From: a virus
Lineage: Duplodnaviria; Heunggongvirae; Uroviricota; Caudoviricetes
Direction: 5' to 3' (one strand)
Virus record (IMG/VR): IMGVR_UViG_3300013094_000021
Length of the DNA: 51,719 nt
In this document: piece by piece, positions 6,664-51,185 of the stretch
How positions within the stretch are numbered: position 1 is the stretch's first letter
Layout of the letters: every line of letters begins with the position of its first letter
Notes under the pieces: model-generated
What the model saw: the letters and a program-made list of their open reading frames with translations, nothing else
Told to the model about the DNA's origin: nothing
Databases searched by the model: none
Translations under genes and position numbers: made by a program

Positions 6664-9597
6664 TTACCTTACCGGACAGGCTCCTCCTGTGCATTCAAGA
6701 GAGTCAATCACAGACGACTCCGTATTGATTCTAGAAACCGATTTAAGAGAGTTTTTGTATGAATTATACTCTTTCTCCGTGATTGGAATCAAAACAGCTT
6801 GGTCGAAGCCGTGACCAGAATGAAGAAGGAATGAAACTGTTTTAATATAAGAGTTATAGTTTGATTTTAGCCAGTCCTTTATTTTTGAAACATCTCCATG
6901 TTTGTAGTAAACGGTGTTTGAAACCGCTTGGTCTGCCCAGCAGGTTTGAAGAGATTTAATCCTGTTTAATTGGTCAACGCAGTCTGAATCTGACTCAAGC
7001 TTAGTGTTATCATCAAAAGAACATGGAAAATAAACTACAGAAATATCGTGGTTTAATTTTTTATCCAATTGAATTTCTGGTTCTATTCTGTATCCAGCGT
7101 CTCTTAAAGACGGAATTAAAGAATCCATAGAAGAAAACCTTACTGTTCTATAGTGAAATTTTGAATATCCGGGATTGGCTCCGGGTGTGGAGCCTGACAA
7201 TAGTGATAGCGTTCCACTGGGCTTTACAACGGTAAGCCTAATTGACTCTGGAAAGTTATTTGCTTTGGAGTATTCTTTATCAAAAGCTCTTAGATTTTTA
7301 TATACAAAGTCGCACCATTCTTCATAATTTTTGTTCTGGCAAACTCCTGTTACGCCAAGTCCAAGTCTCATTTTTTTATGAATAATGTTATTGGATGATT
7401 CAAATAAATATTCGCCAGAAGAAATAGCTTTTTGAGTTTTATAAAGCAATATTGAAATATCTAGCATTTCTTCCTTTGATGTGATGTTATTCATTGCTAG
7501 TTCAGCTAAGTTGCATTGATAAGTCAAAACATTGCCAAAAACAGCCATGTGTCTGTCTTTTTCTTCAAAACAATAAACGTCCTCTAGTTTTTCTAATTTT
7601 GTTATTTTTTTAATATTTTGCCACTTTCCTTTTGTTTTGGCAGTATGGCTATTTTTTGTATTTAATCTACGACAAGGAATTAATTCGCAATCTGTTATAT
7701 ACAAATAATATAAATCTTTATTTCTGATAGATAAATTTGTTTTTGAACCTTTGGTTTGACAAAGATTTACAGAGCTTTTAATTCCGCATTTTGATAATAG
7801 TAATTGAATTCTAGAAGCCCTAGAAAATTCGGATATATATATTCTAATTCCGCCGGAAGACGTATTGGAGCCGTCCGCGTCTGCAAGTCCAGCTATAAAA
7901 TTAAGTATAGATTCTTTATCCCAAGAAAATAACTGATTTATAGCTTCCGAATCATTTTTTAAAGGATTTACTAATTCTAAGTCTATGTATTTAGTGACGT
8001 TTAATTTTTTAAAAGGAATTCTATATTTATCATCCGGTGGAGAGAATTTAATTTCGTGACCTTTAACTTGGCATTTAAAATCTTTTTCTCCAAAAAGTAT
8101 AACTTTTGCTACATTTTTATCAATGTGTCCGTCTCCAACTGTAAATCCCAAAGTATATGCGTCTTTTTCATATTTTTTACCAGACGAATACTCTATTTTA
8201 AATGGCTCTGAATGAACTGAAAACCCATCTGAAATTTTTATATCACATAAAGCAACTTTTTTATAATCCTTCTCAAACCTGTTCTTTATTGAAAATTTAT
8301 GGTTTTTATTGCAATCTAAAAAAGAACCATCAGAAAATGAAACTCTATAAATTTCATTATTTATTCCTGTTTTTCTAGGGATAACTTTTGACCATTTTTC
8401 TCCATTCCAAACCTCTATTTCTTTATTAACGCAATCTTTTATATAAGAAAACCCATCTTTTGTAATAAGTGGCGTATTTCCAGATACGCAAGCCTCTTTG
8501 TCAGCTAGAAGAGCTTCGGCGCACGGATTGCAACCAATAATGTCCTCATCGTTAAGATTTAATCCATTAATTTCGGTTTCGCCAATTCTTCCAAATTTTT
8601 TTGAATTCTTTAAGTTAAATAATCCGTATGGCTCTCCCCCTCCGGTTTCGTATGGTTCCCAAAATTTATTTAAAATATGATTATAATCATTACATATTGA
8701 GCTATTATTTGAATTACTTCTATAAGCTGGAATTGTAATATCCAAATCCCATCTTTTAAGATTTAAATACCCAACATCGTCAACGTCACCAAGTAGAATT
8801 ATGGCTGTTCTTCTTATGCCGCCGGATTTAACTACTTGTCCGCCGCAACAAATGATATCGGCAACGTCTTGGGTTCTTAATTTTTTGCCTTCTCTTGATT
8901 CTAGTATTTTACAAAGCTCTTGGCATCCATCCATGAGTGGTTTTGGGCCGGGAGCTATTCCACCAAATGTTTTTAACGGTTCGCCAGCGGGCCTAATACA
9001 CACATTTGAATAAGAAAATGATTCACCTGTTTCAAGGTATGATTTTAAAATTTTTCTCCAAAGGTATGCCCATCCTTCCTTACTATCTGGAACTATAAAG
9101 TCTGCGTCCTTTGTATTTTTCATTACACATTTGACGCCTTTTTTAACTCTCGGAAGTTCTTGAGTGTATTCTCTGGAAATATTGCAACCAACCCCTCCTC
9201 CAAGCATTGATTCGGTAAATATAAAGTAAAAATCGTCTATATTTGAAACTTTTGTAACCCAACAATTAAGAAGAGAGTCGTTACCGATTAAATCAACAGT
9301 TGGAGTCCCTAGTTGCCAAAGACCTCTTCCAGAAAAGAAGCCTTTAAGGTCGAACATATAACTGTAAAGCCTTTCCGCCTCTTCTTTTGTGTATTTGGCT
9401 CCTATTTTTTGAGCGCCATTGATACATCTAGCTATTGTTTCCCACCATTCCTCTTGGAGTCCTAACTTATTTTTTCTGGAATAAGTTCTTTTATAAACAA
9501 CGTATGACAAATCTCCAAACCCCCAAGGAACTTTTTTATTTGAATATTTTTTTAAAAAATCTTTTGAAAGTATTTCCGATTCGTAATTTTCAATCAT
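6664..9597 (-). CDS. nrdJ: class II (B12-dependent, monomeric-type) ribonucleotide reductase with intein
   Basis: YKRTYSR, SLLNC, GGGVG, GGIRR, NPCAE...CNLAE and KPSGT motifs. Confidence 0.93.
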   Translation of the reverse strand: MIENYESEILSKDFLKKYSNKKVPWGFGDLSYVVYKRTYSRKNKLGLQEEWWETIARCINGAQKIGAKYTKEEAERLYSYMFDLKGFFSGRGLWQLGTPTVDLIGNDSLLNCWVTKVSNIDDFYFIFTESMLGGGVGCNISREYTQELPRVKKGVKCVMKNTKDADFIVPDSKEGWAYLWRKILKSYLETGESFSYSNVCIRPAGEPLKTFGGIAPGPKPLMDGCQELCKILESREGKKLRTQDVADIICCGGQVVKSGGIRRTAIILLGDVDDVGYLNLKRWDLDITIPAYRSNSNNSSICNDYNHILNKFWEPYETGGGEPYGLFNLKNSKKFGRIGETEINGLNLNDEDIIGCNPCAEALLADKEACVSGNTPLITKDGFSYIKDCVNKEIEVWNGEKWSKVIPRKTGINNEIYRVSFSDGSFLDCNKNHKFSIKNRFEKDYKKVALCDIKISDGFSVHSEPFKIEYSSGKKYEKDAYTLGFTVGDGHIDKNVAKVILFGEKDFKCQVKGHEIKFSPPDDKYRIPFKKLNVTKYIDLELVNPLKNDSEAINQLFSWDKESILNFIAGLADADGSNTSSGGIRIYISEFSRASRIQLLLSKCGIKSSVNLCQTKGSKTNLSIRNKDLYYLYITDCELIPCRRLNTKNSHTAKTKGKWQNIKKITKLEKLEDVYCFEEKDRHMAVFGNVLTYQCNLAELAMNNITSKEEMLDISILLYKTQKAISSGEYLFESSNNIIHKKMRLGLGVTGVCQNKNYEEWCDFVYKNLRAFDKEYSKANNFPESIRLTVVKPSGTLSLLSGSTPGANPGYSKFHYRTVRFSSMDSLIPSLRDAGYRIEPEIQLDKKLNHDISVVYFPCSFDDNTKLESDSDCVDQLNRIKSLQTCWADQAVSNTVYYKHGDVSKIKDWLKSNYNSYIKTVSFLLHSGHGFDQAVLIPITEKEYNSYKNSLKSVSRINTESSVIDSLECTGGACPVR
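7516..8490 (-). mobile_element. intein (325 aa) with LAGLIDADG homing endonuclease, inserted before the RNR catalytic Cys
   Basis: Starts CVSGNT, has LGFTVGDG and IAGLADADG, ends DVYCFEE...H...GNVLTYQ followed by CNLAE; removal restores KEA-CNLAE. Confidence 0.9.
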
Positions 9598-26952: not shown

Positions 26953-27374
26953 GGGCGGTTACTGGTTTCGACTATTGTAATCAGTAAATTAATGCAGGTC
27001 GTAGAGCATTGGGCTACGAAAAAAGATGCACAAAATAAATGCTAAAAATGCGTTGAAAAACGCCGTTGCGAAAGTTAAAGAAGTTTACGCTTCTGCTTGT
27101 GAATCGGTTTCCGCCGCTTTGCAGGTTCCTAGCATGGCAATGTCTGTAGCTTAAATTACAGCCGATTAACTGAATGACCCAGATATTTTAGTTAATCGTC
27201 ATATTTCTGGAAAAACGTATATGGATAAATATACGAAAAACAACTATCCAATATTTTTGAAAAAGTTTGTTGATTTAAATGTTCAAAAATTAATCGGTTA
27301 AAAATTAACTAAACCTGTAGAATTAGTTTGTTTATTGTAATAGGACATGGGTTCAACTCCCATACCGTCCACCA
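26953..27374 (+). ncRNA. ssrA: tmRNA
   Basis: GGGCGGT/ACCGTCC-ACCA acceptor with G3-U70, GGTTTCGAC 5' motif, T-arm ATGGG-TTCAACT-CCCAT, helix 2 and pk1 pairings, ATAAAT-GCT resume context. Confidence 0.95.
27041..27154 (+). other. tmRNA tag reading frame (A)AKNALKNAVAKVKEVYASACESVSAALQVPSMAMSVA*
   Basis: Translated from the GCT after pk1/ATAAAT to TAA. Confidence 0.8.
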
Positions 27375-37684: not shown

Positions 37685-37761
37685 ACGGCAATAGCTAAGT
37701 TGAGAGAAGCATTAGTCTCCAAAATTAACATAGATGGGTTCGACTCCCATTTGCCGTGCCA
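37685..37761 (+). tRNA. tRNA-Trp(CCA)
   Basis: ACGGCAA/TTGCCGT acceptor, loop CT-CCA-AA, GCCA end. Confidence 0.85.
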
Positions 37762-37905
37762 CTTTAACCACCGAAAAATAATGTATTTACCTGAATACAA
37801 GTAGTAGGGTAAATGTAGTTTGGACAACATTGAAAATTATATCAACTGTTTGTTCACGCATGGTTACAAGGAAAATGTTAGCTTGTAAAAATCATTTAAT
37901 TTAAT

Positions 37906-37982
37906 GGGGCGTGGGCAACCCGATGGTTGAGTAACTTTTGCAAAGTTATGGATTTTCGATTTGACTTCGACACGCTCCACCA
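37906..37982 (+). tRNA. tRNA-Ala(TGC)
   Basis: G3-U70, loop TT-TGC-AA, T-loop TTTGACT. Confidence 0.8.
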
Positions 37983-38199
37983 GTTTTATGGGCGGTAACG
38001 AAAAGACGTTTCCAGATTCGGTTAAAATCCGTCGCTGTCCACACCAGTTTTCCGCTACTCGCCTTATCCACAAGGTTAATCGTTGGACTCTTTCTAGAGT
38101 AGCATTTCATTTTACAATGGCGCATAAAAGAATTCCATCTTTGGCTACCAGCCAAATTAAAAATATTCTTTTAGATTATTCCTTGTAATATAATTTAAT

Positions 38200-38285
38200 G
38201 GGAGCTTGGGATAGCGGCAATTCCAGCGCGCTGTAAACGCGCCGTCTTTATGGCTTCACTCGTTCGAGTCGAGTAGCTCCCACCA
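38200..38285 (+). tRNA. tRNA-Tyr(GTA)
   Basis: GCGCG-CTGTAAA-CGCGC, variable arm, ACCA end. Confidence 0.9.
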
Positions 38286-38343
38286 TTTTGGAAGTATTTA
38301 ATAACTTCATCTTTTTGTTGGTAGAGTCAACTAACTATTTAAT

Positions 38344-38421
38344 GGTGGTAGTAGCACAACTGATTAGTGCCCGAACTTGTGGAGTTCGCTTATGCGAGTT
38401 TAAATCTCGTTTACCACCCCA
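38344..38421 (+). tRNA. tRNA-His(GTG)
   Basis: G-1:C73 pair, loop TT-GTG-GA. Confidence 0.88.
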
Positions 38422-38427
38422 ATTTAT

Positions 38428-38515
38428 GGAAGCTACCAGAGTTGGCTCTCTGAAAGGTCTTGAAAACCTTGGTGACGTTAATTCGTCAATCGTTCGATGC
38501 GATTAGCTTCCGCCA
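38428..38515 (+). tRNA. tRNA-Ser(TGA)
   Basis: AAGGT-CTTGAAA-ACCTT, variable arm, G73. Confidence 0.9.
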
Positions 38516-38629
38516 TTTTATACTAAAGTTTATCATCATAACGGCATGGTAAAAAGAGCGTTGCAACGCCAACCTTTATCAGAGTCTTTGATAATTGACA
38601 AAGGAAGCCGTCTTTAGTATATTTATTTT

Positions 38630-38806
38630 ATGAATATTCACGCCCCACCAAAACACATACAAGATTTCTTTAAATGTGTTACTTTTCGCGGTAGGCGTTT
38701 TGTTAGAAATGGCAAAACATATATTCGCGCCAAGCATAATGTTTTTCATATAACTATGTATTATTGCTTCGATGATAATTTCATTTATTTTTATGGTGAT
38801 ATCTGA
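38630..38806 (+). CDS. small hypothetical protein (58 aa, not in ORF track)
   Basis: MNIHAPPKHIQDFFKC..., downstream of TTGACA-N17-TATATT. Confidence 0.5.
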   Translation: MNIHAPPKHIQDFFKCVTFRGRRFVRNGKTYIRAKHNVFHITMYYCFDDNFIYFYGDI

Positions 38807-38832
38807 AAAATCATATAAAATACAAAAAAGAA

Positions 38833-38861
38833 TTGACATAAACATTTGATACCTTTATAAT
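38833..38861 (+). promoter_or_regulatory. sigma70-type promoter
   Basis: TTGACA-N17-TATAAT. Confidence 0.8.
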
Positions 38862-38868
38862 ATATCCA

Positions 38869-39114
38869 ATGAATATTGATAGCCTTAAGATTTTTTTGTC
38901 GTTTGCTTGGATTTCTTTAATGATTTTACTTTGTCTATACCTAACTCTTTGGGAGGAAATAAAATACTGGCTAAAAAACAAAGAAGACTTTAAATATATT
39001 TTTATTGATGTGCTTTCTCATATAGTTTTCTATGGTATTGTAATTATACTCGGTCTTTTAACATTTTTAAGTGTTAATAAAATTTTCGATTTTTTTCTTG
39101 GAAGAGGTATTTAG
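38869..39114 (+). CDS. small 2-TM membrane protein
   Basis: Two hydrophobic stretches. Confidence 0.6.
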   Translation: MNIDSLKIFLSFAWISLMILLCLYLTLWEEIKYWLKNKEDFKYIFIDVLSHIVFYGIVIILGLLTFLSVNKIFDFFLGRGI

Positions 39115-39115
39115 A

Positions 39116-39194
39116 GTCTCTTTAATGGCCGCGCCTACGAAGCGATTGGTGCATAATTGAATTTATGTAGGTTTGAGTCCTACAAGAGACACCA
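39116..39194 (+). pseudogene. tRNA-like gene with degenerate D and anticodon arms
   Basis: GTCTCTT/AAGAGAC-ACCA acceptor and intact T-arm; anticodon ambiguous (TGC or CAT). Confidence 0.6.
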
Positions 39195-39203
39195 TTTTTT
39201 GTC

Positions 39204-39296
39204 GGGGGTAAGATGTAAGGTTGCATGGGGAGATTTATAATCTCTATAATCGCTAGATTGGCGTTCTGGGCCGTTCAATTCGGCATACCCCTACCA
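39204..39296 (+). tRNA. tRNA with TAT (Ile) anticodon and ~23-nt variable arm
   Basis: GGGGGTA/TACCCCT-ACCA, GGAGA-TTTATAA-TCTCT, V-arm hairpin CGCTA-GAT-TGGCG. Confidence 0.8.
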
Positions 39297-39305
39297 TTTA
39301 TAATC

Positions 39306-39390
39306 CGGTCTATGGCGGAATCGGCAGACGCACTCCACTCAAAATGGAGCGGGTAAAACCGTGCGATTTCAAGACTCGCTAGACCGACCA
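39306..39390 (+). tRNA. tRNA-Leu(CAA)
   Basis: CTCCA-CTCAAAA-TGGAG, variable arm, A73. Confidence 0.9.
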
Positions 39391-39397
39391 ATTTTAT

Positions 39398-39486
39398 TGC
39401 TCTATGGTGGAATTGCTAGACACCCTCGATTTAAAACCGAGTGCGAATAAAGTAGCGTGTCGGTTGGAACCCGACTAGAGCAACCA
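39398..39486 (+). tRNA. tRNA-Leu(TAA)
   Basis: Loop TT-TAA-AA, variable arm, A73. Confidence 0.88.
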
Positions 39487-39503
39487 GCTTTATAATTTTT
39501 AAT

Positions 39504-39588
39504 GGCGGTGTGGCGAAATTGCTAGACGCGCTCGATTTAGGGTCGAGTGGGGAAACCCGTGGGGATTGAACTTCCTCTACCGCTACCA
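39504..39588 (+). tRNA. tRNA-Leu(TAG)
   Basis: CTCGA-TTTAGGG-TCGAG, variable arm. Confidence 0.9.
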
Positions 39589-39689
39589 TTTAACCTGCAA
39601 CAAGGAGTTGGCCGCAACTCGACTGAGATTTCTCGGTTAAAGTAGGTGCAACTATGGCGGCTCCGCCAAATTATTTTAATTTATTTTAT

Positions 39690-39780
39690 GGTTACGAGGC
39701 CGAAGTTGTCGAGGCGTCACACTGTCACTGTGAATAGGAGCAATCCATTCTAGCGGGTTCATGTCCCGTCGTAACCGCCA
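39690..39780 (+). tRNA. tRNA-Asp(GTC) with 19-nt variable arm
   Basis: TCACA-CTGTCAC-TGTGA, V-arm GGA-GCAA-TCC, G73. Confidence 0.85.
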
Positions 39781-39879
39781 CTTTTTTAAAGGTTATGATG
39801 ATTTTTGTTCGAGGCTGGAGTGGCAAGCCGAAAGAGCAGAAAAAGCTCATAAAAATATTAAATCAACGATAGATTCAAT

Positions 39880-40077
39880 ATGAAAATCAAAAATATAAAA
39901 TTAAAATCCGTCATTTTAGAAATAGAAGGTAAGGAAGTAAGGTATGACAATTTTGGAATATTCGGATGGGAATCCAACCAGAACTCATTACTGCAATGTA
40001 GAGGCGTTGACCTAACGGTTAGAGTTGGCAAAAAGGATATAACAATTCCCCTAGAAAGTTCTTATGGAGAAAATTAA
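39880..40077 (+). CDS. hypothetical protein
   Basis: ORF track; between tRNAs. Confidence 0.6.
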   Translation: MKIKNIKLKSVILEIEGKEVRYDNFGIFGWESNQNSLLQCRGVDLTVRVGKKDITIPLESSYGEN

Positions 40078-40089
40078 AGATTTATAAAT

Positions 40090-40164
40090 AGAGCGTTGGT
40101 CGAGCGATTAGGCATCGGTCTGCAAAACCGAATTAGATTGGTTTGACTCCAATACGTTCTTCCA
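40090..40164 (+). tRNA. tRNA-Cys(GCA)
   Basis: TCGGT-CTGCAAA-ACCGA, U73. Confidence 0.88.
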
Positions 40165-40172
40165 TTTTTTTC

Positions 40173-40201
40173 TTGACCAATCAAGAAAAAAGATTTATAA
40201 T
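40173..40201 (+). promoter_or_regulatory. sigma70-type promoter
   Basis: TTGACC-N17-TATAAT. Confidence 0.7.
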
Positions 40202-40208
40202 ATCCAAT

Positions 40209-40433
40209 ATGAATAAACTATACCTAGTTGGCTATATTCCAGATATCCTCAACAAAGAAAAAGAATGGGAATTTGTTGGTGTCTTTACCGATATAAAAAA
40301 AGCAAGGAGAGCGGCGAAACTACCTTCTTGTTTTATAGGCGTAGTTAAAATAGACAAAGACTTTGGAATGAAATCGGAGGCGTGGCCGGAAGGCGAATAT
40401 GAATGGCCCAATATTAAGAAGATTTTAAAATAG
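40209..40433 (+). CDS. hypothetical protein
   Basis: ATG 40209 after promoter; track start lies inside tRNA-Cys. Confidence 0.6.
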   Translation: MNKLYLVGYIPDILNKEKEWEFVGVFTDIKKARRAAKLPSCFIGVVKIDKDFGMKSEAWPEGEYEWPNIKKILK

Positions 40434-40452
40434 TTTTGTGAAGTCCTATATC

Positions 40453-40528
40453 GCCGCGATGGGTGACTGATGAAACCGTCCGACTGCAAATCGGAATTTG
40501 AAAAGTTTGATTCTTTTGCGCGGCTCCA
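40453..40528 (+). tRNA. tRNA-Cys(GCA), second copy
   Basis: TCCGA-CTGCAAA-TCGGA, U73. Confidence 0.82.
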
Positions 40529-40602
40529 TTTTAAAAATCTCTTTACAAAAAGAAAAAACCATGCTATTATTAAAGTGTAACAATTTACAATAAAAAATAA
40601 CT

Positions 40603-40818
40603 ATGTCAGCTAAATATAAAAATGGCTCCTCCGTCTCAATTAATGATTTAATCCTTTTCCAAACCGTAGATGATACGGTTTCGGTAGGAACGCTCATTTC
40701 TGACAATGGCGATGGAACTGGAACGGCTCAAATTACCGACGCTAACGGAAATGTCCACAGCGAAGGTGTGATTTTTGACCTATCTTATAAGGTGGGCGAC
40801 TTGTTTCCAGATTTGTGA
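40603..40818 (+). CDS. hypothetical protein
   Basis: ORF track; preceded by a GTGTAA motif. Confidence 0.6.
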   Translation: MSAKYKNGSSVSINDLILFQTVDDTVSVGTLISDNGDGTGTAQITDANGNVHSEGVIFDLSYKVGDLFPDL

Positions 40819-40826
40819 ATTTTAAT

Positions 40827-40904
40827 CGGGGTATCGCCTAACTTGGTATGGCAGCACGTTTGGGGCGTGACATAATTTCAGTTCAAATCTGAATATCCCG
40901 ACCA
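40827..40904 (+). tRNA. tRNA-Pro(TGG)
   Basis: CGGGGTA/TATCCCG acceptor, loop TT-TGG-GG. Confidence 0.88.
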
Positions 40905-41015
40905 TTTGCCAGTTTAATTTAAACTGGATGTGGTGTGCCGATGATAGTCAAGTGGTTTGCCACGAAAACTACCTGCACCAGTTTTAGCACTTTCTATAAA
41001 AAGTGCAATTTAATT

Positions 41016-41101
41016 TGCGGAATGCGAGAAGTCCGGTATCTCAGGAGGCCCATAACCTCCCGCCTAGTGCCTCGTGGGTTCAAATCCCACTTCCGCTACC
41101 A
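41016..41101 (+). tRNA. tRNA-Met(CAT), initiator-like, with 13-nt variable region
   Basis: T1:T72 mismatch, GAGA/TCTC D-stem, GGAGG-CCCATAA-CCTCC. Confidence 0.8.
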
Positions 41102-41107
41102 TTTAAT

Positions 41108-41182
41108 GCGCTTGTAATTCAGAGGCAGAATGTCGCTCTTCCAAAGCGAACGTCGGGATTTCAAAATTCCCCAAGCGCTCCA
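41108..41182 (+). tRNA. tRNA-Gly(TCC)
   Basis: TCGCT-CTTCCAA-AGCGA, U73. Confidence 0.9.
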
Positions 41183-41284
41183 TTTTTGCAACTCAGGTCA
41201 TATTGCGAAGAAAATACGGCGGTATTTTACTCCTATTTTTCCGACCTGAAATGTATTGAACACTTGCAACATTTTAATTCTAAT

Positions 41285-41373
41285 TGGGGTGTGGCGGAAT
41301 TGATAGACGCAGAAGTTTGTTAAACTTCCGAGAGAAATCTCACCTACAGGTTTAATCCCTGTTGCCCCAGCCA
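41285..41373 (+). tRNA. tRNA with GTT (Asn) anticodon on a Leu-type class II body
   Basis: GAAGT-TTGTTAA-ACTTC, 17-nt V-arm with GAGA-GAAA-TCTC, G73. Confidence 0.85.
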
Positions 41374-41448
41374 TTTATGAAAAAATATTCAAAGATACCA
41401 AACTCATATCCAAACGAAGTTTCTTGATGAATTTAAGATAGTATTAAT

Positions 41449-41536
41449 GCGTTCGTAGGTAAGTGGCCGAAACCAACGGGCCTTTAACCCGTAGTCTAAA
41501 AGACCATCGTGAGTTCGACTCTCACCGGACGCACCA
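41449..41536 (+). tRNA. tRNA-Lys(TTT) with 16-nt variable arm
   Basis: ACGGG-CCTTTAA-CCCGT, V-arm GTCT-AAA-AGAC, A73. Confidence 0.85.
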
Positions 41537-41551
41537 TATAAAATCACTAAC

Positions 41552-41626
41552 GGCCCTATCGAATATAAATTAATTCGCTACTTTCTCAAAGTAGAAAAGG
41601 CGGAGGATAACCGGCTAGGGCTACCA
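41552..41626 (+). tRNA. tRNA-Glu(CTC), atypical D and T loops
   Basis: CTACT-TTCTCAA-AGTAG; T-loop AGGATAA. Confidence 0.6.
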
Positions 41627-41634
41627 ATTTTAAT

Positions 41635-41708
41635 GGGGCGATAATTTAATGGTAAAATAGAATCTTGATAAGATTCCTTTCTCAGTCCGATTCGGAGTCG
41701 CCCTACCA
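41635..41708 (+). tRNA. tRNA-Ile(GAT)
   Basis: GAATC-TTGATAA-GATTC, A73. Confidence 0.82.
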
Positions 41709-41717
41709 TTTTTTTTG

Positions 41718-41746
41718 TTGACTTTTATCTATAAAGAAGTTATACT
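41718..41746 (+). promoter_or_regulatory. sigma70-type promoter
   Basis: TTGACT-N17-TATACT. Confidence 0.7.
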
Positions 41747-41786
41747 TTAAATATTATTCGATTCATATTAAAAAATAAAATAAATT

Positions 41787-42023
41787 ATGTCCGACAATTT
41801 AAGTTTTAAAAATCTATGGAGAAACTTTTCAGATATTGATTTGAAAACTAAGGGGTTCTATTTTTCTAGACCAAAAAACAATCCAACCGCTAATTATATA
41901 CAAAGTCTTATAATACTAAACGAATCTCATTTGACTGGCCGGATTACCATAAACGGCTGCTCATACCAGTATAATAAAAATTGGTCTGAATTAATCGAAA
42001 TTGTCGGGCCGATAGATTTGTAA
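41787..42023 (+). CDS. hypothetical protein
   Basis: ORF track; downstream of promoter. Confidence 0.6.
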   Translation: MSDNLSFKNLWRNFSDIDLKTKGFYFSRPKNNPTANYIQSLIILNESHLTGRITINGCSYQYNKNWSELIEIVGPIDL

Positions 42024-42158
42024 TTAAAATGAAACACATTGAACCAAACCAGCGCGCATATTTTTTAGCGATGGAAGTTTCATTGCTTTTTGAATCGCTC
42101 GGCTTCGACTCAAGTATATTTCTTTTTTGGATGGTTGGAAATTTAAATAAATAAAACT

Positions 42159-42575
42159 ATGAAACAAGAATCAATCCATAGAAATCTCGTTAAATTTAGA
42201 GTCTGGGATGGAATTATGTTTATGGAGCCAAACATTGCAAATCCTTTTAATTTTATAGAGGATGGCAATAAATACGAGATTTATGTTGCTGGCGACAGAG
42301 TAATACAGCAATACACTGGACTGAAAGACAAGTATGGAAAAGAAATTTACGAGGGCGACCTGATAAATTTCACCATACAAGGCTTCGCGCACGAAGCTTA
42401 TCCAGAAGATATAAAATCTGCCGAAGTTTGGTATAATCCAAAGGACGCCTGTTTTTGTTTTGGCCGATACAAAACTAATGATTTTATTGATTATTATTTT
42501 TCAATGGCAGACAGGATAGATTTAAAAACTATGGAAATTGTTGGTAATATTTTTGAAAAAAATGAAAAAATTTAA
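42159..42575 (+). CDS. YopX-like protein
   Basis: KFRVWD, QYTGLKDKYGKEIYEGD and EIVGNIFE. Confidence 0.85.
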   Translation: MKQESIHRNLVKFRVWDGIMFMEPNIANPFNFIEDGNKYEIYVAGDRVIQQYTGLKDKYGKEIYEGDLINFTIQGFAHEAYPEDIKSAEVWYNPKDACFCFGRYKTNDFIDYYFSMADRIDLKTMEIVGNIFEKNEKI

Positions 42576-42687
42576 AACTAGCAAACCAGTGAGATTGAGC
42601 CATTCCTTTATTAAAAAAGCTCAAAAAATTCACTCTGATGTAATTAAAGAATCAAAAACTTGGAATAAAGAAAAGTGAAAATTTAAT

Positions 42688-42763
42688 GGCCGCGTCGTCT
42701 AACGCCTAGGACTCTTCGTTTTCAGCGAAGTATATGCGGGTTGAAATCCCGTCGCGGCTTCCA
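42688..42763 (+). tRNA. tRNA-Glu(TTC)
   Basis: CTTCG-TTTTCAG-CGAAG. Confidence 0.88.
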
Positions 42764-42771
42764 ATTTTAAT

Positions 42772-44117
42772 GTCAACAACATCTAGTCTAAAGCCATAGA
42801 TGCTTGTAAGCTACCGAAGCCTACGATTGGCGAGTTGACTTTCGCCTGCCACGCATAATAATCGCTTATTGAGCATGGGAGTTTGGAACGTAGAGCAATG
42901 TTACACGCAGCGTTACAATCCGCATGGAGTATTTGCCCGTCTTTTCCGATATACCTACCGCCGATACGCTTTCCATCTAATTTGCCTGTGCGATGGTCAA
43001 TTTGACTCGTATATGCGGGACTAACCGTTATCACCTGTTTATTATTCAGGAGTGCCTTATAGGTAAGAATCCGTCTAAGTTCAAACATTGGAACTTGACT
43101 AATCCTATTTTTATTTTGATACTTATGTTTTTTAACCTTAATAGATTTAAGATTCTCCAATACAATCGTATCAGCCCTTGTATCGGAAATTATTTTATTA
43201 GCTAAATGGTGACTAAAATTCTTGTTTTTATTCGATTCTTTGCGTTTGAGTTTTTTTAGTTGACGTTTTGCTGATTTAGAGTCTTTGGATTTTGACTGTA
43301 ATTTACGCTTATTAAACCTTAATTTTCTCTTTTCACCATTAAACTTCTTATCTATGTATAGATTACCTTCACTGGTAGCGGCATTAACGCGGCAACCCAA
43401 ATCAATTCCTAACGCAAGTTTCTTTTGCGATAAAACCTCTGGAATATCAAAAGTTAAACATATCCAAACTTCTCCATCTTTTTCAAACAAAAGCGGGTCA
43501 CAAAAACGATATTTGCTAATTAACTCTTGTAATTTAGGGTAAATATAAGGGGAACATTTGACTCGTTTTTCTAAACTTATGATACTGAAAATACCATTTT
43601 TATACGAATACGTTCTTTTGTCTAAACGGATTGAAAGTTTCTTCTTTTCGGGCGGTTTATCTAATTTTTGCTTATTGGATTTAATACTCCGATATGCTGA
43701 CAAAACAGATTGTTCTGCACTTATCACTACCTGACTTGGAATTTCAGGTTGACAACTCCTAAACTTAGTATAAAATTGTCCATGCAACAAAACGATAGAA
43801 TTTTTGGGAATATTAAACTTAACTTTGGAACATTCATTCCAAGCGAAACGCTGGCTTTCGAGCATACTGACAATCTTATTCTTGTCAGAATCGCTCTGGA
43901 AAACCAATCTCGTATTATATGTTAATTTACTCACTACAATATATTATACACGGAAAAAGACGAAATATCCAATTTATTTTCATATACTGAAAGATTTTCT
44001 TGACTTTTGAGTAAAAATAGTGTAAATTAATAAAGATAATTATGCTAAACTCACGCAAATATTTTTTCTCATATCCTAGCCTAAAGGCATAGGATTTTCC
44101 GAAAAAAGAGACATTTT
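42772..44117 (-). mobile_element. non-autonomous IS200/IS605-family element (TnpB only)
   Basis: On the minus strand: TTCAT | left end with GAAA guide and ATCCTATGCC-TTTA-GGCTAGGAT hairpin; right end CAAG plus hairpin ending TTGAC; both guide/cleavage tetranucleotide pairs fit the IS608 pairing rule. Confidence 0.75.
42783..43934 (-). CDS. tnpB: TnpB RNA-guided endonuclease
   Basis: RuvC I GIDLG, II VLENL, III HADCNAA.NI; Zn-finger cysteines absent (TSQIDHRTG). Confidence 0.92.
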   Translation of the reverse strand: MSKLTYNTRLVFQSDSDKNKIVSMLESQRFAWNECSKVKFNIPKNSIVLLHGQFYTKFRSCQPEIPSQVVISAEQSVLSAYRSIKSNKQKLDKPPEKKKLSIRLDKRTYSYKNGIFSIISLEKRVKCSPYIYPKLQELISKYRFCDPLLFEKDGEVWICLTFDIPEVLSQKKLALGIDLGCRVNAATSEGNLYIDKKFNGEKRKLRFNKRKLQSKSKDSKSAKRQLKKLKRKESNKNKNFSHHLANKIISDTRADTIVLENLKSIKVKKHKYQNKNRISQVPMFELRRILTYKALLNNKQVITVSPAYTSQIDHRTGKLDGKRIGGRYIGKDGQILHADCNAACNIALRSKLPCSISDYYAWQAKVNSPIVGFGSLQASMALD

Positions 44118-44129
44118 ATGAATTTTAAT

Positions 44130-44204
44130 CCGCTAGTAACTCAGTATGTAGAGTGCCTCCCTGAAAAGGAGGAAGCCGTCATTTCGCCATGACCTAGCGG
44201 GCCA
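44130..44204 (+). tRNA. tRNA-Phe(GAA)
   Basis: CCTCC-CTGAAAA-GGAGG; unusual G73. Confidence 0.82.
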
Positions 44205-44209
44205 CTTTT

Positions 44210-44464
44210 ATGAGAATTGATAAAATTATAAATTGGGATTTTGAAAAAGTTCACGCCGAACTAAAGTCTAATAACAAAAAATTTGGACTTGTTTGTTTTC
44301 GTGGGTTTGAATGGGGCGGCTCTCCGTCAACACTCTTTATTTTCGACTCCATGAATGAAGTAAGAGAAAAAATACTAGAGCAAACAAACGGAAAATATGA
44401 ATACTTTGGAATAGTTGATGATGATTTTCATAGTATGAGCTTTAATATATACAAAAGACACTAA
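44210..44464 (+). CDS. hypothetical protein
   Basis: ORF track; between tRNAs. Confidence 0.6.
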   Translation: MRIDKIINWDFEKVHAELKSNNKKFGLVCFRGFEWGGSPSTLFIFDSMNEVREKILEQTNGKYEYFGIVDDDFHSMSFNIYKRH

Positions 44465-44469
44465 TTAAT

Positions 44470-44544
44470 AGAAGCGCAGCACGAAGGCCGTGCAACTCGT
44501 TTACACCGAGAAGGCTAGGGTTTCAAAATCCCTCGCTTCTACCA
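44470..44544 (+). tRNA. tRNA-Val(TAC)
   Basis: AGAAGCG/CGCTTCT acceptor, loop TT-TAC-AC. Confidence 0.85.
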
Positions 44545-44629
44545 TTTTGTAGGTTAAAAAATCAACGCCCTCACTATTTTACTTGACATAAAGCTCGAAA
44601 CCATTTATCATAAAATAGTATAAATTCTA

Positions 44630-44863
44630 ATGAAAATCTCGTGCGTCCAATGCCCACACTGTTTCGACTTGATTTATTCAAGAGCTAGGCACGATTTCCG
44701 CTATTGCACTTGCGGCAAGTGCGCCGTAGATGGCGGGCGCGATTATACAAAAGTTGTCGGTGACGGAAGTATTTTAGAAATAAATATTTTAGCATCCGAA
44801 AAAGTCCTTTATAACGACTGGAACAAACAAATTAACAAGTTTGGTTTAATTAAAACTAATTAA
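44630..44863 (+). CDS. small Zn-ribbon protein
   Basis: CPHC...S..RHDF..CTCG...VDGG. Confidence 0.7.
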   Translation: MKISCVQCPHCFDLIYSRARHDFRYCTCGKCAVDGGRDYTKVVGDGSILEINILASEKVLYNDWNKQINKFGLIKTN

Positions 44864-44870
44864 TCGTATT

Positions 44871-44944
44871 GGATGTATAGTATAATGATATTACAATCCT
44901 TTCATACGGGAAAGACTATGGTTTGATTCCATATATAGCCACGA
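44871..44944 (+). tRNA. tRNA-Met/Ile2(CAT), degenerate, ends ACGA instead of ACCA
   Basis: Loop TT-CAT-AC, T-arm TATGG-TTTGATT-CCATA. Confidence 0.6.
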
Positions 44945-44953
44945 ATTTTAAAA

Positions 44954-45220
44954 ATGAAAATATTTAGCATAGTAACTCCAAAATCATACGAGGATATAGA
45001 AAATTTAAAAATTCCGACATTTTTAAAAAACAAAAACCATGAAGTATTTTCTTATCCAGATGGAGACTTAAAAAAAGGCGAGCATTATTTAGTTACCGAC
45101 GTTGAATTTAATAAGGCGGCAAACTCTCTCGCCATTAAGATTAAAGGATGCAGGGTAATAATTAAAGCCACCGGAAAGGAAGGTTTTTGGACTGCTGAAT
45201 GTTTTAAATGTATTGAATAA
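44954..45220 (+). CDS. hypothetical protein
   Basis: ORF track. Confidence 0.6.
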   Translation: MKIFSIVTPKSYEDIENLKIPTFLKNKNHEVFSYPDGDLKKGEHYLVTDVEFNKAANSLAIKIKGCRVIIKATGKEGFWTAECFKCIE

Positions 45221-45672
45221 ATGATTAATAAAATTTAACTTACCAAATTGACGATTAAACAATAAAAATCCATGAACAAGAAAAACTTCAATAGAAACAT
45301 CCATATTTTCGATAAAGTTCTTTGCGTTGACGATGAATTTAATTCCATAGCGTCCTTCCAAAATTAGGTAAAGTATATACAGTTCGAGGGATTTATTATC
45401 ATGCTCAAACCGATAAAATTGGGATTCATCTTCAAGAAATCGAAGGCGCTTTTAACTTAAAAATTGGCACGGAGCAGGGTTTTAACATTGACAGATTCCA
45501 AAGAGTGCATTAATATATAAATATTATGTATATACCTATAATTTATTTAATTTCTTTTTTATTATCAATTCCATTTTCATTATATATTCCTTTTATTTTT
45601 TGTAATTATTTTTCAAAAGCGCCAAGCACACGAATGCTTGAACACTGCTATTGCCAAAATAGATAATTTAAT

Positions 45673-45747
45673 GGGTTCGTAGCTTAATGATAAAGCACTA
45701 TTTTTGTAAAATAGTTGATGTCGGTTGAAATCCGACCGTTCCCTCCA
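45673..45747 (+). tRNA. tRNA-Thr(TGT)
   Basis: CTATT-TTTGTAA-AATAG; two T:T mismatches in the acceptor stem. Confidence 0.75.
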
Positions 45748-45756
45748 TTTTTTAAC

Positions 45757-45830
45757 TGACGCCTAGTGTAATGGTAGCACAGGAACCTTTGGAGTTCTTA
45801 GAAATGGTTTAATTCCATTGGCGTCAACCA
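45757..45830 (+). tRNA. tRNA-Gln(TTG)
   Basis: TGACGCC/GGCGTCA acceptor, loop CT-TTG-GA. Confidence 0.88.
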
Positions 45831-46020
45831 ATTTTAAAATGAAAAAACACCAAGTAATAATGAACATAACCGTTGGCGGAATAGTGTCGGTTTACGCCAA
45901 AGATAAAAAAGCCGCCGAAAATAGAGCCAGAGAAAAACTACAGGAAATCGGCGAAGCGGCCTTTTGCGACGTTGGGCATCGAGATATTATGTTTTGCGGT
46001 TTTTTAGAAAATAAGAAAAA

Positions 46021-46251
46021 ATGAAAAACTCCGAACCATCCACCAGAGATAAGCTAAACGCTTTCAACTTGGGATATTATCATTCAAAAATAAAATCAAA
46101 AAACAATCCATACGATATTGATTTTGAAAATTGTCTTTACTTGAATTATGAATCAGGCTACAATGAACACTGTGAAAACAAAAAAGAAAACTGTAAAAAA
46201 ATGTCAAGTCTGCAAAGCTCCGAACGCCAAACTTCGCCGCCAGAGAACTAA
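46021..46251 (+). CDS. hypothetical protein with loose RMF-like pattern
   Basis: AF..GY........NPY............GY. Confidence 0.45.
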   Translation: MKNSEPSTRDKLNAFNLGYYHSKIKSKNNPYDIDFENCLYLNYESGYNEHCENKKENCKKMSSLQSSERQTSPPEN

Positions 46252-46360
46252 TTTTGAAAACGATAAACTCAATTTCGCCATTCTTTGCAAAGAGTGCCAA
46301 AACGAGGCAGACTTATACTGGTCTAGCTTGATATCTGATTTTTATAATGATGTTATTTGA
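46163..46360 (+). CDS. small CxxC...CxxC protein
   Basis: CQVC and CKEC; overlaps previous ORF. Confidence 0.5.
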   Translation: MNTVKTKKKTVKKCQVCKAPNAKLRRQRTNFENDKLNFAILCKECQNEADLYWSSLISDFYNDVI

Positions 46361-46368
46361 GTCCCTAT

Positions 46369-47055
46369 ATGCCTAAGCCCAAAAGAATTATATTAATCAG
46401 ACACGGGGAAAGCGAGGGTAACGTGGATAGAAAAACATATTCCACAAAACCAGATTATGCCGTAAGACTAACTGAAACCGGAAAAATTCAAGCCAAGGAT
46501 GCCGGAAAACTAATTAAATCATTAATAAAAGACCAAAGCTACGGATGTTATTATTCTCCATACTTTCGCGCCCGCGAAACAATGGATTTAGCCATAAAAG
46601 AAATAGATAATAATCTCGATTATAATAAAAACAGATTTTTTAAAAAAGAAGAGCCAAGAATAAGAGAGCAGGAATATAGCGGGAAATTAATCGGAAAACA
46701 GATGGGCGACAAATTTGAAAAAGAAAGGGCTGCTTACGGCAAATTCTTTTACCGCCTTGAAGGTGGAGAAAGCGGCTGCGATGTTTATGATAGAATATCT
46801 GATTTTATAGGAACTCTGCACAGAGATTTTGAAAAACCGTATTTTCCAGATAATTGCCTGATATTTGGTCATGGAATGGCAAATCGCCTTTTTGTTATGA
46901 AATTTTTTCACGTTCCAATAGAAGAATTTGAAACTTGGAAAAATCCCAACAATGGAGAAATATATATTTTACAACTACTACCAAGTAATAGATACGAACT
47001 TATAACCGAAATCCAAAAACATCCTAAACCCTATGGATGGATATATAAAAAATAA
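46369..47055 (+). CDS. histidine phosphatase (phosphoglycerate mutase family)
   Basis: LIRHGES, SPYFRARET, IREQE, GGES and FGHG. Confidence 0.92.
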   Translation: MPKPKRIILIRHGESEGNVDRKTYSTKPDYAVRLTETGKIQAKDAGKLIKSLIKDQSYGCYYSPYFRARETMDLAIKEIDNNLDYNKNRFFKKEEPRIREQEYSGKLIGKQMGDKFEKERAAYGKFFYRLEGGESGCDVYDRISDFIGTLHRDFEKPYFPDNCLIFGHGMANRLFVMKFFHVPIEEFETWKNPNNGEIYILQLLPSNRYELITEIQKHPKPYGWIYKK

Positions 47056-47060
47056 AAATT

Positions 47061-47273
47061 ATGATTTTCAAATACCATTTCAACAAACCCGCAAGCCTTA
47101 AGCTCAAAAGACCTCTTTTATCCTTGCATTATTCCGGCGCTTGTCATATCATAGATAAAATACATTGCAACGTGCCGACTTATTCTCATAATAATAAGAG
47201 ACAACCAAGGGTAGTTATAAAAGGAAAAGCCAATAAAATAACAATTCAAAAAGGCGTTGCCACCATAAATTAA
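47061..47273 (+). CDS. hypothetical protein
   Basis: ORF track; co-oriented. Confidence 0.6.
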   Translation: MIFKYHFNKPASLKLKRPLLSLHYSGACHIIDKIHCNVPTYSHNNKRQPRVVIKGKANKITIQKGVATIN

Positions 47274-47378
47274 AACATGACACCTCAACAATACAACCAT
47301 ATTTGCACTGGAATCTTTTTAATTGGATTAATAAATATAGTGAATTTTTTATTACTTTATTTTAAAAAATAAAAATAT

Positions 47379-47465
47379 GGCTACATGGCAGAGATGAAAT
47401 GCACTCCCGTGCTAAGGGAAGTGTGGGTAAAACCAGCGTTGAGTCGTTCTCAACTGTAGCCGCCA
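47379..47465 (+). tRNA. tRNA-Ser(GCT)
   Basis: GGCTACA/TGTAGCC acceptor, loop GT-GCT-AA, variable arm, G73. Confidence 0.82.
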
Positions 47466-47637
47466 ATTTATGAAATGCGAAATACATCCAAGATATAAAG
47501 TAATAAGAAAACCAAGAAGCAAAAAATCAAACTGTATATGTTCAAATATTTACAAAAATAAGAAATCCAATGTAAAAGATGAAATTTAGGAATACGCTAG
47601 ACACGATTTAAGATAATCAATACTTTTATAAAATAAT

Positions 47638-47826
47638 ATGAGAAACGCCGTAAGAATCAGAAGTAAAAAAATACCTGTATTTGGCAAAATAAATCAATTT
47701 AAGTCAAAATGCAGGTGCGGCAATTGGCAAAAATGGGGCACAACCGGACTAATATTAGACACAGTAGAATGCTCAAATTGTAAAAATACAATTGAAATAG
47801 ATTTTTTTGATAAAAATCCTGATTGA
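47638..47826 (+). CDS. small Cys-pair protein
   Basis: CRCG and CSNC. Confidence 0.5.
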   Translation: MRNAVRIRSKKIPVFGKINQFKSKCRCGNWQKWGTTGLILDTVECSNCKNTIEIDFFDKNPD

Positions 47827-47859
47827 CTTTTAGAACGGAATTCTTTAAAATAATTTTCT

Positions 47860-48060
47860 ATGAAAAACAGATTCACCTATCAAATCGTTGACTCCGAAAC
47901 CAAAGAAGTCATATCTTCGGTTGATTGCAATAAATATGCAGAAATAAAGGCCGACCTTTTATCTTCAAAAATAGCTTGCGAAAAACTCTTCTTCAATTAT
48001 GCAGTTCATATCTATGGCGCTCAAAAAGTAAATGAAATCGTTAATAAATTTATTGATTAA
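47860..48060 (+). CDS. hypothetical protein
   Basis: ORF track; upstream TTGACT box. Confidence 0.55.
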   Translation: MKNRFTYQIVDSETKEVISSVDCNKYAEIKADLLSSKIACEKLFFNYAVHIYGAQKVNEIVNKFID

Positions 48061-48066
48061 AATTTT

Positions 48067-48144
48067 GGTCTTGTGGCGCGAATTGAATCAGGCAGCAATT
48101 TCCTAAATTGTTTTATGCGGGTTTGAATCCCGCCAAGACCACCA
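48067..48144 (+). tRNA. tRNA-Arg(CCT)
   Basis: GCAAT-TTCCTAA-ATTGT. Confidence 0.85.
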
Positions 48145-49282: not shown

Positions 49283-49606
49283 GAAGAGATTATAACGCTG
49301 ATATAAGTGAAAGCCTTATATTAGAGGAAACTCGCCGCTGCACAGCAGATGATTGGGAGAGTTATGACCTGTATCCTTGAAAAACTCGTATTATTGGTAG
49401 AAATACCATAGATAAGCAGGTTTGGCCGATATAAAGGGGTATTAGAATAAGACCACTCGCGAACACCACAAATTAGCAGCAACCCTAAATCGTTAAAGGC
49501 TAGTGCTGGCCGATGTAAAAACTAGGTTGGGGCAGTCGTTATTAGCACACGACCATTGAAAAATGAGAAAAATGTTATATTAACACAGAACGGCGGTTAA
49601 CTCTTC
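49283..49606 (+). ncRNA. rnpB: RNase P RNA
   Basis: CR-I GAGGAAACTCGCCGC, CR-V ACAGAACGGCGGTTA, P4 TCGCCG/CGGCGG, P1 GAAGAG/CTCTTC, P5 GCTGC/GCAGC. Confidence 0.85.
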
Positions 49607-50345: not shown

Positions 50346-51185
50346 CTAATAACTCCATATAAATCCACCCGCCGTTTTTCTGTTTCCGTTACAAGCCTCG
50401 CTTATACATGAATAGCTTATATTTAATGAGTCGCCAGCTTCTTTATTGGAATACCATATTTTTATCAATTCATTATTAATAGGATTGATTTGTTTGACTT
50501 GTTTGTTTTTGGGGTTATTTTTTATTTCAATATATTTATTATATTTTCTGTAAAGTCCCATTTTATCATTTTCATAATCTTTATATATATAATTTAAAAA
50601 TGATATTAATTCTTTATATTTACCAAGCCTCAATGTAGAATGTTTGTGATTTAAATAATTAATACTTCTATATATTTTCGGATTAGCTTTAAAATTTTCT
50701 TCCAGAAATTTGATATGTCCGCTCCAATCTTGTTCGTATGTTGACGCAAAAGCTAGTCTATGACACCCCTTTCCCAATATAACTGTTAAACAGCCATCGG
50801 CGTCTAAATAACCTCGCCACCAATAATTTTTCAATTCATCGGGAATTATTGATAATATTTTTTCTATATTTATATTTGATTTTTTATCAAATCCCAACGA
50901 TATTAAATATTTTGCTAAAAACCTATCATTTAAATTATAGGTGACAGAATGTTTATAATTTCTCGTTTCGCTTACTCTATTTCTAATATATTTTTTCCAT
51001 TTTGCATTAGTCTCGAAAGATTGAAAAAAACTTTCTATCTCAACAAAATCTTCTAAAATCATCGAAAAGCTTATATATCTGGAATAAGTTTTACTCCTTA
51101 CTGTAGTAAGGCATCCGTCGCCCCATAATAAACCTAAAACATAAGCCTTTTCTTTACAATCAATTTTAAAGTTATCTTCATTCAT
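50346..51185 (-). CDS. free-standing double-motif LAGLIDADG homing endonuclease with NUMOD1-like C-terminal HTH
   Basis: AYVLGLLWGDG, WWRGYLDADG and ISEACNGNRKTAGGFIW. Confidence 0.88.
   Translation of the reverse strand: MNEDNFKIDCKEKAYVLGLLWGDGCLTTVRSKTYSRYISFSMILEDFVEIESFFQSFETNAKWKKYIRNRVSETRNYKHSVTYNLNDRFLAKYLISLGFDKKSNINIEKILSIIPDELKNYWWRGYLDADGCLTVILGKGCHRLAFASTYEQDWSGHIKFLEENFKANPKIYRSINYLNHKHSTLRLGKYKELISFLNYIYKDYENDKMGLYRKYNKYIEIKNNPKNKQVKQINPINNELIKIWYSNKEAGDSLNISYSCISEACNGNRKTAGGFIWSY

Follow-up and report, generated by a model that had tools for sequence, protein, structure and literature searches.

The window analysed here is a 51,719-nt stretch of the IMG/VR virus record IMGVR_UViG_3300013094_000021 (Caudoviricetes) and is part of the ~116-kb genome of an uncultured phage with a GC content near 32%. 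It carries an array of 26 tRNA genes (37685-48144, all on the plus strand), in which the elbow contact between residue 19 of the D-loop and residue 56 of the T-loop is mostly kept as a Watson-Crick pair but is often built from other bases than G19 and C56. In total, 12 tRNAs have G-C, seven A-U, three C-G, one has a G.U wobble, and three are mismatched. The canonical G19-C56 pair is not general in this array, as 14 of the 26 tRNAs depart from it.

As the first-pass annotation of this DNA had numbered the residues by eye, the numbering used here is taken from alignments to the Rfam family RF00005, which permit insertions on both sides of G18-G19. In these alignments, A19 and U56 accompany G18 in tRNA-His, both copies of tRNA-Cys, tRNA-Asn, and the second tRNA-Met (Met2), all with T-loops beginning TTT, and C19 and G56 accompany G18 in tRNA-Leu(UAA), tRNA-Leu(UAG), and tRNA-Glu(UUC), with T-loops beginning TTG. 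For tRNA-Ala (unreported by Rfam) and tRNA-Arg (D-loop unprinted by Rfam), A19/U56 is assigned from the ARAGORN fold, from positional homology, and from the single available G. These are the same ten tRNAs in which GA with TTT or GC with TTG had been read by eye. All tRNAs with GG hold C56, which includes the nine for which this had been listed (Tyr, Ser-UGA, Leu-CAA, Lys, Pro, Met1, Gly, Val, and Ile-UAU) and additionally Ile-GAU. The list of exceptions stands for Trp (ambiguous), Gln (wobble), Thr (mismatch), and Ser-GCU (aberrant T-loop) but not for Asp. Asp and Phe, the latter missing from that list, show U18-G19 with C56 in the Rfam alignment, placing U18 opposite U55; both keep the 19-56 pair and have lost G18. 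The 17-nt D-arms of the Leu tRNAs and of tRNA-Asn match base for base, and columns 18-19 read GG in Leu-CAA, GC in Leu-UAA and Leu-UAG, and GA in Asn. A covariance model of our own, built from a MAFFT seed, was tried for the numbering and rejected. It pushed all D-loop length variation before residue 18, and because residues 18 and 19 are thus mis-registered in longer D-loops, it is kept out of the numbering and the pair counts. Its useful yield is two extra matches, at 41552 and 39116.

With this formal alignment the covariation seen by eye persists. A Watson-Crick 19-56 pair is present in 22 of the 26 tRNAs, whereas random reassignment of the T-loops gives 10.5 on average and reaches 22 in 0 of 50,000 shuffles. 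The least favourable register reading still gives 20/26 Watson-Crick pairs, again reached by 0 of 50,000 shuffles, and in slid controls, in which either partner is moved by 1-3 positions, no more than 15/26 are paired. C56 is absent in 12 tRNAs, ten of which have the complementary base at residue 19. Pairwise identity among the ten swapped tRNAs does not exceed 68%, which rules out recent gene duplication as the origin of the repeated swaps. The changes at 19-56 are compensatory, and the tertiary pair is therefore under selection to stay paired: what the elbow contact requires is a pair, not G-C in particular. The earlier proposal of ten covarying changes that keep the shape of the elbow holds insofar as the changes are compensatory and lie in ten diverged genes; they need not represent ten independent events.

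The remainder of the elbow resembles the canonical one (G18-psi55, G19-C56, U54-A58, and G53-C61 in RF00005), as the cloverleaf, the 7-nt T-loop, G18, and Watson-Crick pairing at 19-56 are kept. The differences are the A-U and C-G pairs at 19-56 (seven and three of 26) and the replacement of G53-C61 in seven tRNAs, with A-U at this place in Ala, Leu-UAG, and Ser-GCU. Each of the ten swapped tRNAs retains G18 and the T-loop motif (7 nt, U54, U55, purine 57, A58), and CCA is encoded in all of them except Met2. Over the whole array the motif occurs in 22/26 tRNAs and is missing from Ile-GAU (C55), Asp (U58), Phe (6 nt), and Ser-GCU. Residue 55 is U in the counted tRNAs, with C55 in one, and an A18-G55 type of contact is seen only in the probable, uncounted tRNA-Glu(CUC) at 41552.

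Compensated swaps are also found outside of this array. An unselected phage sample was collected from IMG/VR contigs that were reached via a canonical T-arm seed and in which only the neighbouring tRNAs were scored (455 assignable of 468). Here, 96.5% of the 455 tRNAs have G19-C56 and 1.3% a swapped Watson-Crick pair. Phage tRNAs collected with a U56 seed (n=68) have A19 in 59-61 cases and G19 in 7, and those collected with a C19 Leu-type D-arm seed have G56 in 20/20. Compensated covariation at 19-56 is thus a general and very clean feature of phage tRNAs, and isolated swaps occur widely in phages. The concern that the pattern is routine in phage tRNAs applies to such single swaps (1-3% in other arrays) but not to the load of the window. 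Among 61 arrays with at least eight tRNAs, half of which were picked for containing a swap, the maximum is three swaps, compared to 10/26 in the window. In a T5-like Klebsiella phage 1 of 25 tRNAs is swapped, and the nearest case, the IMG/VR contig L261 (GC 31%), has 4/13 swapped tRNAs together with several uncompensated mismatches. The swap load of the window is exceptional compared with other phage arrays and one cell. At U8, A14, U54, and U55 the window is similar to the arrays of other phages, and it is an outlier at the two conserved G-C pairs of the elbow region, namely 19-56 (54% versus 6% non-GC) and 53-61 (27% versus 1.7%).

The closest parallel to the C19-G56 genes is phage tRNA-Leu. 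The D-loop AATTGCTAG, the T-loop beginning TTG, and the swap itself are shared between Leu-UAA/Leu-UAG of the window and tRNAs on 20 IMG/VR contigs (GC 26-56%), always with G56. These arrays, however, hold only 0-3 further swaps, and identity to the Leu genes of the window reaches no more than about 82-84%, over part of the length only. A BLAST search of the swapped tRNAs against 1,649 collected tRNAs gave no close homologues. GenBank phages contained no high-identity match to the window, and a distant search returned single-tRNA matches only. A metagenome scan for close relatives yielded a tRNA fragment only, and homologues of NADAR traced to T4-like phages have no tRNAs nearby.

Cellular tRNAs show the same covariation. 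In a U56-seeded sample with one genome per prokaryotic species, 46 of 52 tRNAs have A19 and five have G19. Many of the cellular A19-U56 tRNAs are Bacteroidota tRNA-Arg(ACG) with a uniform D-loop (AACTGAATA) and the T-loop TTTGAAT (bacterial genomes L282, L292, L293, L304, L317, L333, L343, L345, L353, L355, and L447). In the full set of Flavobacterium myungsuense, 36/37 tRNAs are G-C and Arg(ACG) is the sole A-U. A19-U56 is the normal state of Bacteroidota tRNA-Arg(ACG), with examples from at least 11 genomes of Bacteroidota and from several phage arrays. In contrast to the window, it concerns one tRNA per genome and not a third of the set, and Arg(ACG) itself is absent from the window. The initial description of G19-C56 as nearly invariant is consequently overstated, given Arg(ACG) and the 1-3% of compensated swaps in phage arrays.

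In the literature, G19-C56 is regarded as a fixed point and as a platform for the ribosome, RNase P, and T-boxes (PMC7912444, PMC4810234). In the full-text literature searched, A19-U56 or U19-A56 is described in no paper and C19-G56 in one, on transfer-messenger RNA (tmRNA); no paper connects phage tRNAs with the elbow pair, and reviews call G19-C56 conserved. Changes at "invariant" elbow positions, combined with a genome rich in AT, are reminiscent of metazoan mitochondrial tRNAs, many of which lack any D-loop/T-loop interaction (PMC4810234), whereas the window preserves this interaction via compensation.

Related phages re-code a different part of the elbow. The array contains a histidine phosphatase gene (46357-47055, plus strand) with an Hsp20 gene just upstream, and homologues of these two genes lead to three related contigs with tRNA arrays at the same position (L001, L455, and L458). 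They belong to the same clade (histidine phosphatase 60-71% and Hsp20 53% identical to the window), and here as well both partners of an elbow contact have been replaced. The difference is that the re-coded contact is 18-55 and that the change is near-uniform array-wide: A18-G55 is found in 8/11, 7/7, and 7/7 tRNAs of the three arrays, and in the window only in the probable Glu(CUC) at 41552. Several tRNAs of these arrays have A54-U58 instead of U54-A58, and swaps at 19-56 are seen as U19-A56 in Gly and Lys of L455 and as C19-G56 in Ser of L001. The tRNAs of the relatives are at most 75% identical to those of the window, which indicates a fast turnover of the array and prevents the direction of change from being inferred. 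Two further relatives, L456 and L457, have no tRNAs. In L457 (10001-11709) an RNA ligase gene (PF09414) comes immediately after the phosphatase gene, and in a second relative a T4 Rnl1-type ligase is encoded near the phosphatase gene; this neighbourhood may represent an RNA-repair pairing. On the contig of one relative, a resolvase and TnpB are encoded as a pair close to this phosphatase gene. The cellular homologues of the phosphatase (~50% identity) come from Bacteroidota and Chlorobiales assemblies, and a Bacteroidota host is a reasonable guess for the phage.

The 26 tRNA genes were assembled from ARAGORN at default settings (20 genes), ARAGORN with a lowered threshold (four more), and Rfam RF00005 (Asp and Phe). 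Twenty of them score 37.6-56.7 bits with RF00005, above the gathering cut-off of 29, with a full-length cloverleaf. For Ala, Ser-UGA, Ile-UAU, Leu-CAA, Met1, and Ser-GCU, ARAGORN is the only basis besides our covariance model, which backs four of these six genes (Ala, Leu-CAA, Met1, and Ser-GCU) with full matches. Stems are intact, and CCA is encoded in 25/26 tRNAs.

Table 1. tRNA genes of the window and tRNA arrays of related phages, with the state of the elbow (CM, our own covariance model).
Feature	Position	Strand	Elbow and other features	Basis
tRNA-Trp(CCA)	37685..37761	+	G18-A19 with C56 mismatch or A18-G19-C56; register ambiguous	ARAGORN; Rfam, low D-loop posterior probability
tRNA-Ala(UGC)	37906..37982	+	A19-U56; G3.U70; short D-loop CCGATG; G8; A53-U61	ARAGORN lowered threshold; CM 20.5 bits; unreported by Rfam
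tRNA-Tyr(GUA)	38200..38285	+	G19-C56	ARAGORN, Rfam
tRNA-His(GUG)	38345..38421	+	A19-U56; D-loop AACTGATTA, T-loop TTTAAAT	Rfam alignment, ARAGORN
tRNA-Ser(UGA)	38428..38515	+	G19-C56	ARAGORN
tRNA-Ile(UAU), long variable arm	39204..39296	+	G19-C56	ARAGORN lowered threshold
tRNA-Leu(CAA)	39306..39390	+	G19-C56; U53.C61 mismatch	ARAGORN
tRNA-Leu(UAA)	39398..39486	+	C19-G56; D-loop AATTGCTAG, T-loop TTGGAAC	Rfam alignment
tRNA-Leu(UAG)	39504..39588	+	C19-G56; T-loop TTGAACT; A53-U61	Rfam alignment
tRNA-Asp(GUC), long variable arm	39690..39780	+	U18-G19 with C56 (alternative G18-U19); T-loop TTCATGT	Rfam 41 bits
tRNA-Cys(GCA) copy 1	40090..40164	+	A19-U56	Rfam alignment
tRNA-Cys(GCA) copy 2	40453..40528	+	A19-U56; <64% identity to copy 1	Rfam alignment
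tRNA-Pro(UGG)	40827..40904	+	G19-C56	Rfam alignment
tRNA-Met(CAU) copy 1 (Met1), long variable arm	41016..41101	+	G19-C56	ARAGORN, CM
tRNA-Gly(UCC)	41108..41182	+	G19-C56; U53.U61 mismatch	Rfam alignment
tRNA-Asn(GUU), Leu-like body	41285..41373	+	A19-U56; D-loop AATTGATAG, T-loop TTTAATC	Rfam alignment
tRNA-Lys(UUU), long variable arm	41449..41536	+	G19-C56	Rfam alignment
Probable 27th tRNA, Glu(CUC)	41552..41626	+	D-loop without G (ATAAATTA); T-loop AGGATAA	CM 26.9 bits, E 7e-6; missed by ARAGORN and Rfam
tRNA-Ile(GAU)	41635..41708	+	G19-C56; C55 with G18; T-loop TCCGATT	Rfam alignment
tRNA-Glu(UUC)	42688..42763	+	C19-G56; D-loop AACGCCTA, T-loop TTGAAAT	Rfam alignment
tRNA-Phe(GAA)	44130..44204	+	U18-G19 with C56; T-loop 6 nt only	Rfam 41 bits
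tRNA-Val(UAC)	44470..44544	+	G19-C56; C8; U53.U61	Rfam alignment
tRNA-Met(CAU) copy 2 (Met2)	44871..44942	+	A19-U56; GC 0.33; CCA not encoded	Rfam alignment
tRNA-Thr(UGU)	45673..45747	+	A19.G56 uncompensated mismatch	Rfam alignment, full posterior probability
tRNA-Gln(UUG)	45757..45830	+	G19.U56 wobble, possible intermediate state	Rfam alignment
tRNA-Ser(GCU)	47379..47465	+	A19; aberrant T-loop GTCGTTC	ARAGORN lowered threshold; CM 16 bits
tRNA-Arg(CCU)	48067..48144	+	A19-U56; T-loop TTTGAAT	Rfam 45.6 bits; D-loop from ARAGORN
Relatives' arrays	L001 9331-20001; L455 3973-10799; L458 276-5390		most tRNAs A18 with G55 (T-loops TGC.../AGC...)	

The probable tRNA-Glu(CUC) is left out of all 19-56 statistics. 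Its elbow is read as A18/G55 and A54-U58, the type dominating in the relatives of the phage, with U19.G56. The second extra match of the covariance model is a tRNA-like element (39116-39194, plus strand) with a 7-bp acceptor stem, an ACCA end, and the T-arm TTTGAGT. It has a small GGC-CGC-GCC hairpin in place of the D-arm and no U33, and may be a degenerate or truncated tRNA. Long variable arms in the style of class II tRNAs are present in Ile(UAU), Asp, Met, Asn, and Lys (39204-41536), and the D-arm of Asn is of the Leu type. In the middle of the array, the minus strand carries a TnpB/Cas12f-like gene (42783-43934; OrfB_IS605 and TNB domains).

The pattern is probably best explained by selection on the geometry of the 19-56 contact, with the identity of the bases being unusually free in this clade and AT drift contributing. 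G-C would be converted to A-U through a G.U wobble step. G19.U56 is found in Gln of the window and in about 10% of the U56 tRNAs elsewhere, states that fit a path from G-C via G.U to A-U under AT pressure. An AT-rich genome would help this drift, and the A-U tRNAs are the AT-richer ones (GC of 0.454 versus 0.517, one-sided p = 0.014). C19-G56 would need two transversions; it sits in tRNA types, above all Leu, that show the same swap in many phages. The force that fixes cellular tRNAs at G-C would then be relaxed or different here, with extra stability and T-loop enzymes that use C56 as candidates. The coexistence of G.U and three mismatched states is as expected of ongoing flux, and the mixture of G-C, A-U, C-G, G.U, and mismatches fits a rule by which any pair will do better than a re-tuning to one reader.

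Several observations weigh against this explanation. If constraint were relaxed in phage tRNAs at large, the window would look like other arrays; it does not, and therefore a lineage-specific cause is needed. No wobble intermediate leads to the three C19-G56 pairs, and the near array-wide uniformity of A18-G55 in the relatives looks directional rather than drift-like. Moreover, the swap fraction does not track GC across 78 arrays (rho 0.13, p = 0.27), so that AT pressure alone is insufficient and is ruled out as the sole cause.

An adaptive re-coding, in which the clade would have been selected for elbows chemically unlike those of host tRNAs, is possible but rather unlikely. Such elbows would let a host or phage factor that reads T-loop or D-loop bases distinguish the phage tRNAs from those of the host, for example a T-loop-cleaving tRNase or a modification enzyme that uses G18, U55, or C56, and sub-lineages would have arrived at different solutions (19-56 swaps in the window, A18-G55 in the relatives). 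The outlier load is indeed focused on elbow pairs and not spread over all invariant positions, the A18-G55 arrays are syntenic and lie upstream of the same histidine phosphatase gene, and C56 is a determinant for at least one T-loop enzyme (PMC7912444). The proximity of the phosphatase to RNA ligase genes in two relatives would further hint at RNA repair and thereby at pressure from a tRNA nuclease. On the other hand, the 19-56 states are heterogeneous and 12 tRNAs are still G-C, so that there is no uniform "non-host" mark, and a search of the window revealed no elbow-reading nuclease or modification gene. We know of no defence system that reads the identity of 19-56. The more specific idea, that in an AT-rich, probably Bacteroidota-infecting freshwater phage clade the elbow serves as a self/non-self mark towards a nuclease or modification enzyme that targets the T-loop or the elbow, is put forward tentatively and appears improbable. 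The known readers of the elbow recognize it by stacking on the flat, exposed side of the pair and leave its bases unread (PMC4810234); therefore, neither the escape from toxins nor the matching to a phage RNase P that the first-pass annotation had suggested follows from a swap of bases. The data do not show the swap to be a defence trick, and escape from an elbow reader or tuning to the RNase P-like RNA of the phage would be speculation.

It is very unlikely that the elbows changed to fit, or were permitted by, an RNase P RNA that the phage itself encodes. This RNA would be encoded just downstream of the array in a 400-nt gene-free gap (49283-49606, plus strand), which contains CR-I (GAGGAAA..CTCGCCG) and CR-V (ACAGAA..CGGCGGTTA) motifs able to pair into a P4 helix that includes the bulged U and shows compensatory changes, as well as a P1-like closing helix (GAAGAG/CTCTTC). 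However, no Rfam RNase P family matches the gap at E values up to 10, and its fold z-score is only -1.28. Stacking, by which the elbow is docked, is offered by any Watson-Crick pair (PMC4810234), and 12 tRNAs of the same array retain G19-C56. Among the other phage loci sampled, RNase P-like motifs occur only in L066, which has 35/35 canonical elbows. An equally slim chance is given to decay, by which the unusual tRNAs would be degenerating pseudogenes and their pairing a product of chance or of the alignment. The 6-nt T-loop of Phe, the T-loop GTCGTTC of Ser-GCU, two U.U pairs in the acceptor stem of Thr, and the seven tRNAs without G53-C61 could be taken as signs of decay, and L261, which is also heavily changed, has several uncompensated 19.56 mismatches. 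Yet the compensation is far beyond chance, as none of the shuffles reproduces it, and the swapped tRNAs reported by Rfam score 37.6-48 bits against the cut-off of 29. Broken stems, missing 3' ends, and uncompensated changes of paired bases, as expected of pseudogenes, do not characterize the array: its stems are unbroken, Met2 alone has no encoded CCA, and identity marks are retained, for example G3.U70 in Ala. In addition, two other lake samples (Logan runs SRR6476468 and SRR6476446) contain near-identical arrays. Judged by these features, the array is predicted to consist of working phage tRNA genes.

Outside of the array, the window encodes a DnaB-type helicase, a primase, a RecA-like protein, ThyX, a GMP-reductase-like enzyme, and a tmRNA (26953-27374). 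A ribonucleotide reductase gene (6664-9597, minus strand) is split by a LAGLIDADG-type, intein-like insert, and a free-standing LAGLIDADG gene is located at 50346-51185 (minus strand).

The array is of use beyond this phage, as one genome offers G-C, A-U, C-G, G.U, and mismatched 19-56 contacts on otherwise intact tRNAs. This natural set lets one ask what fixes cells at G-C, whether stability, T-loop modification enzymes, or a reader of base identity, and places natural elbow variants at hand for tRNA engineering and orthogonality studies. If the clade-wide re-coding of the elbow were adaptive, phage and host would be in conflict over tRNAs at the elbow as well as at the anticodon loop.

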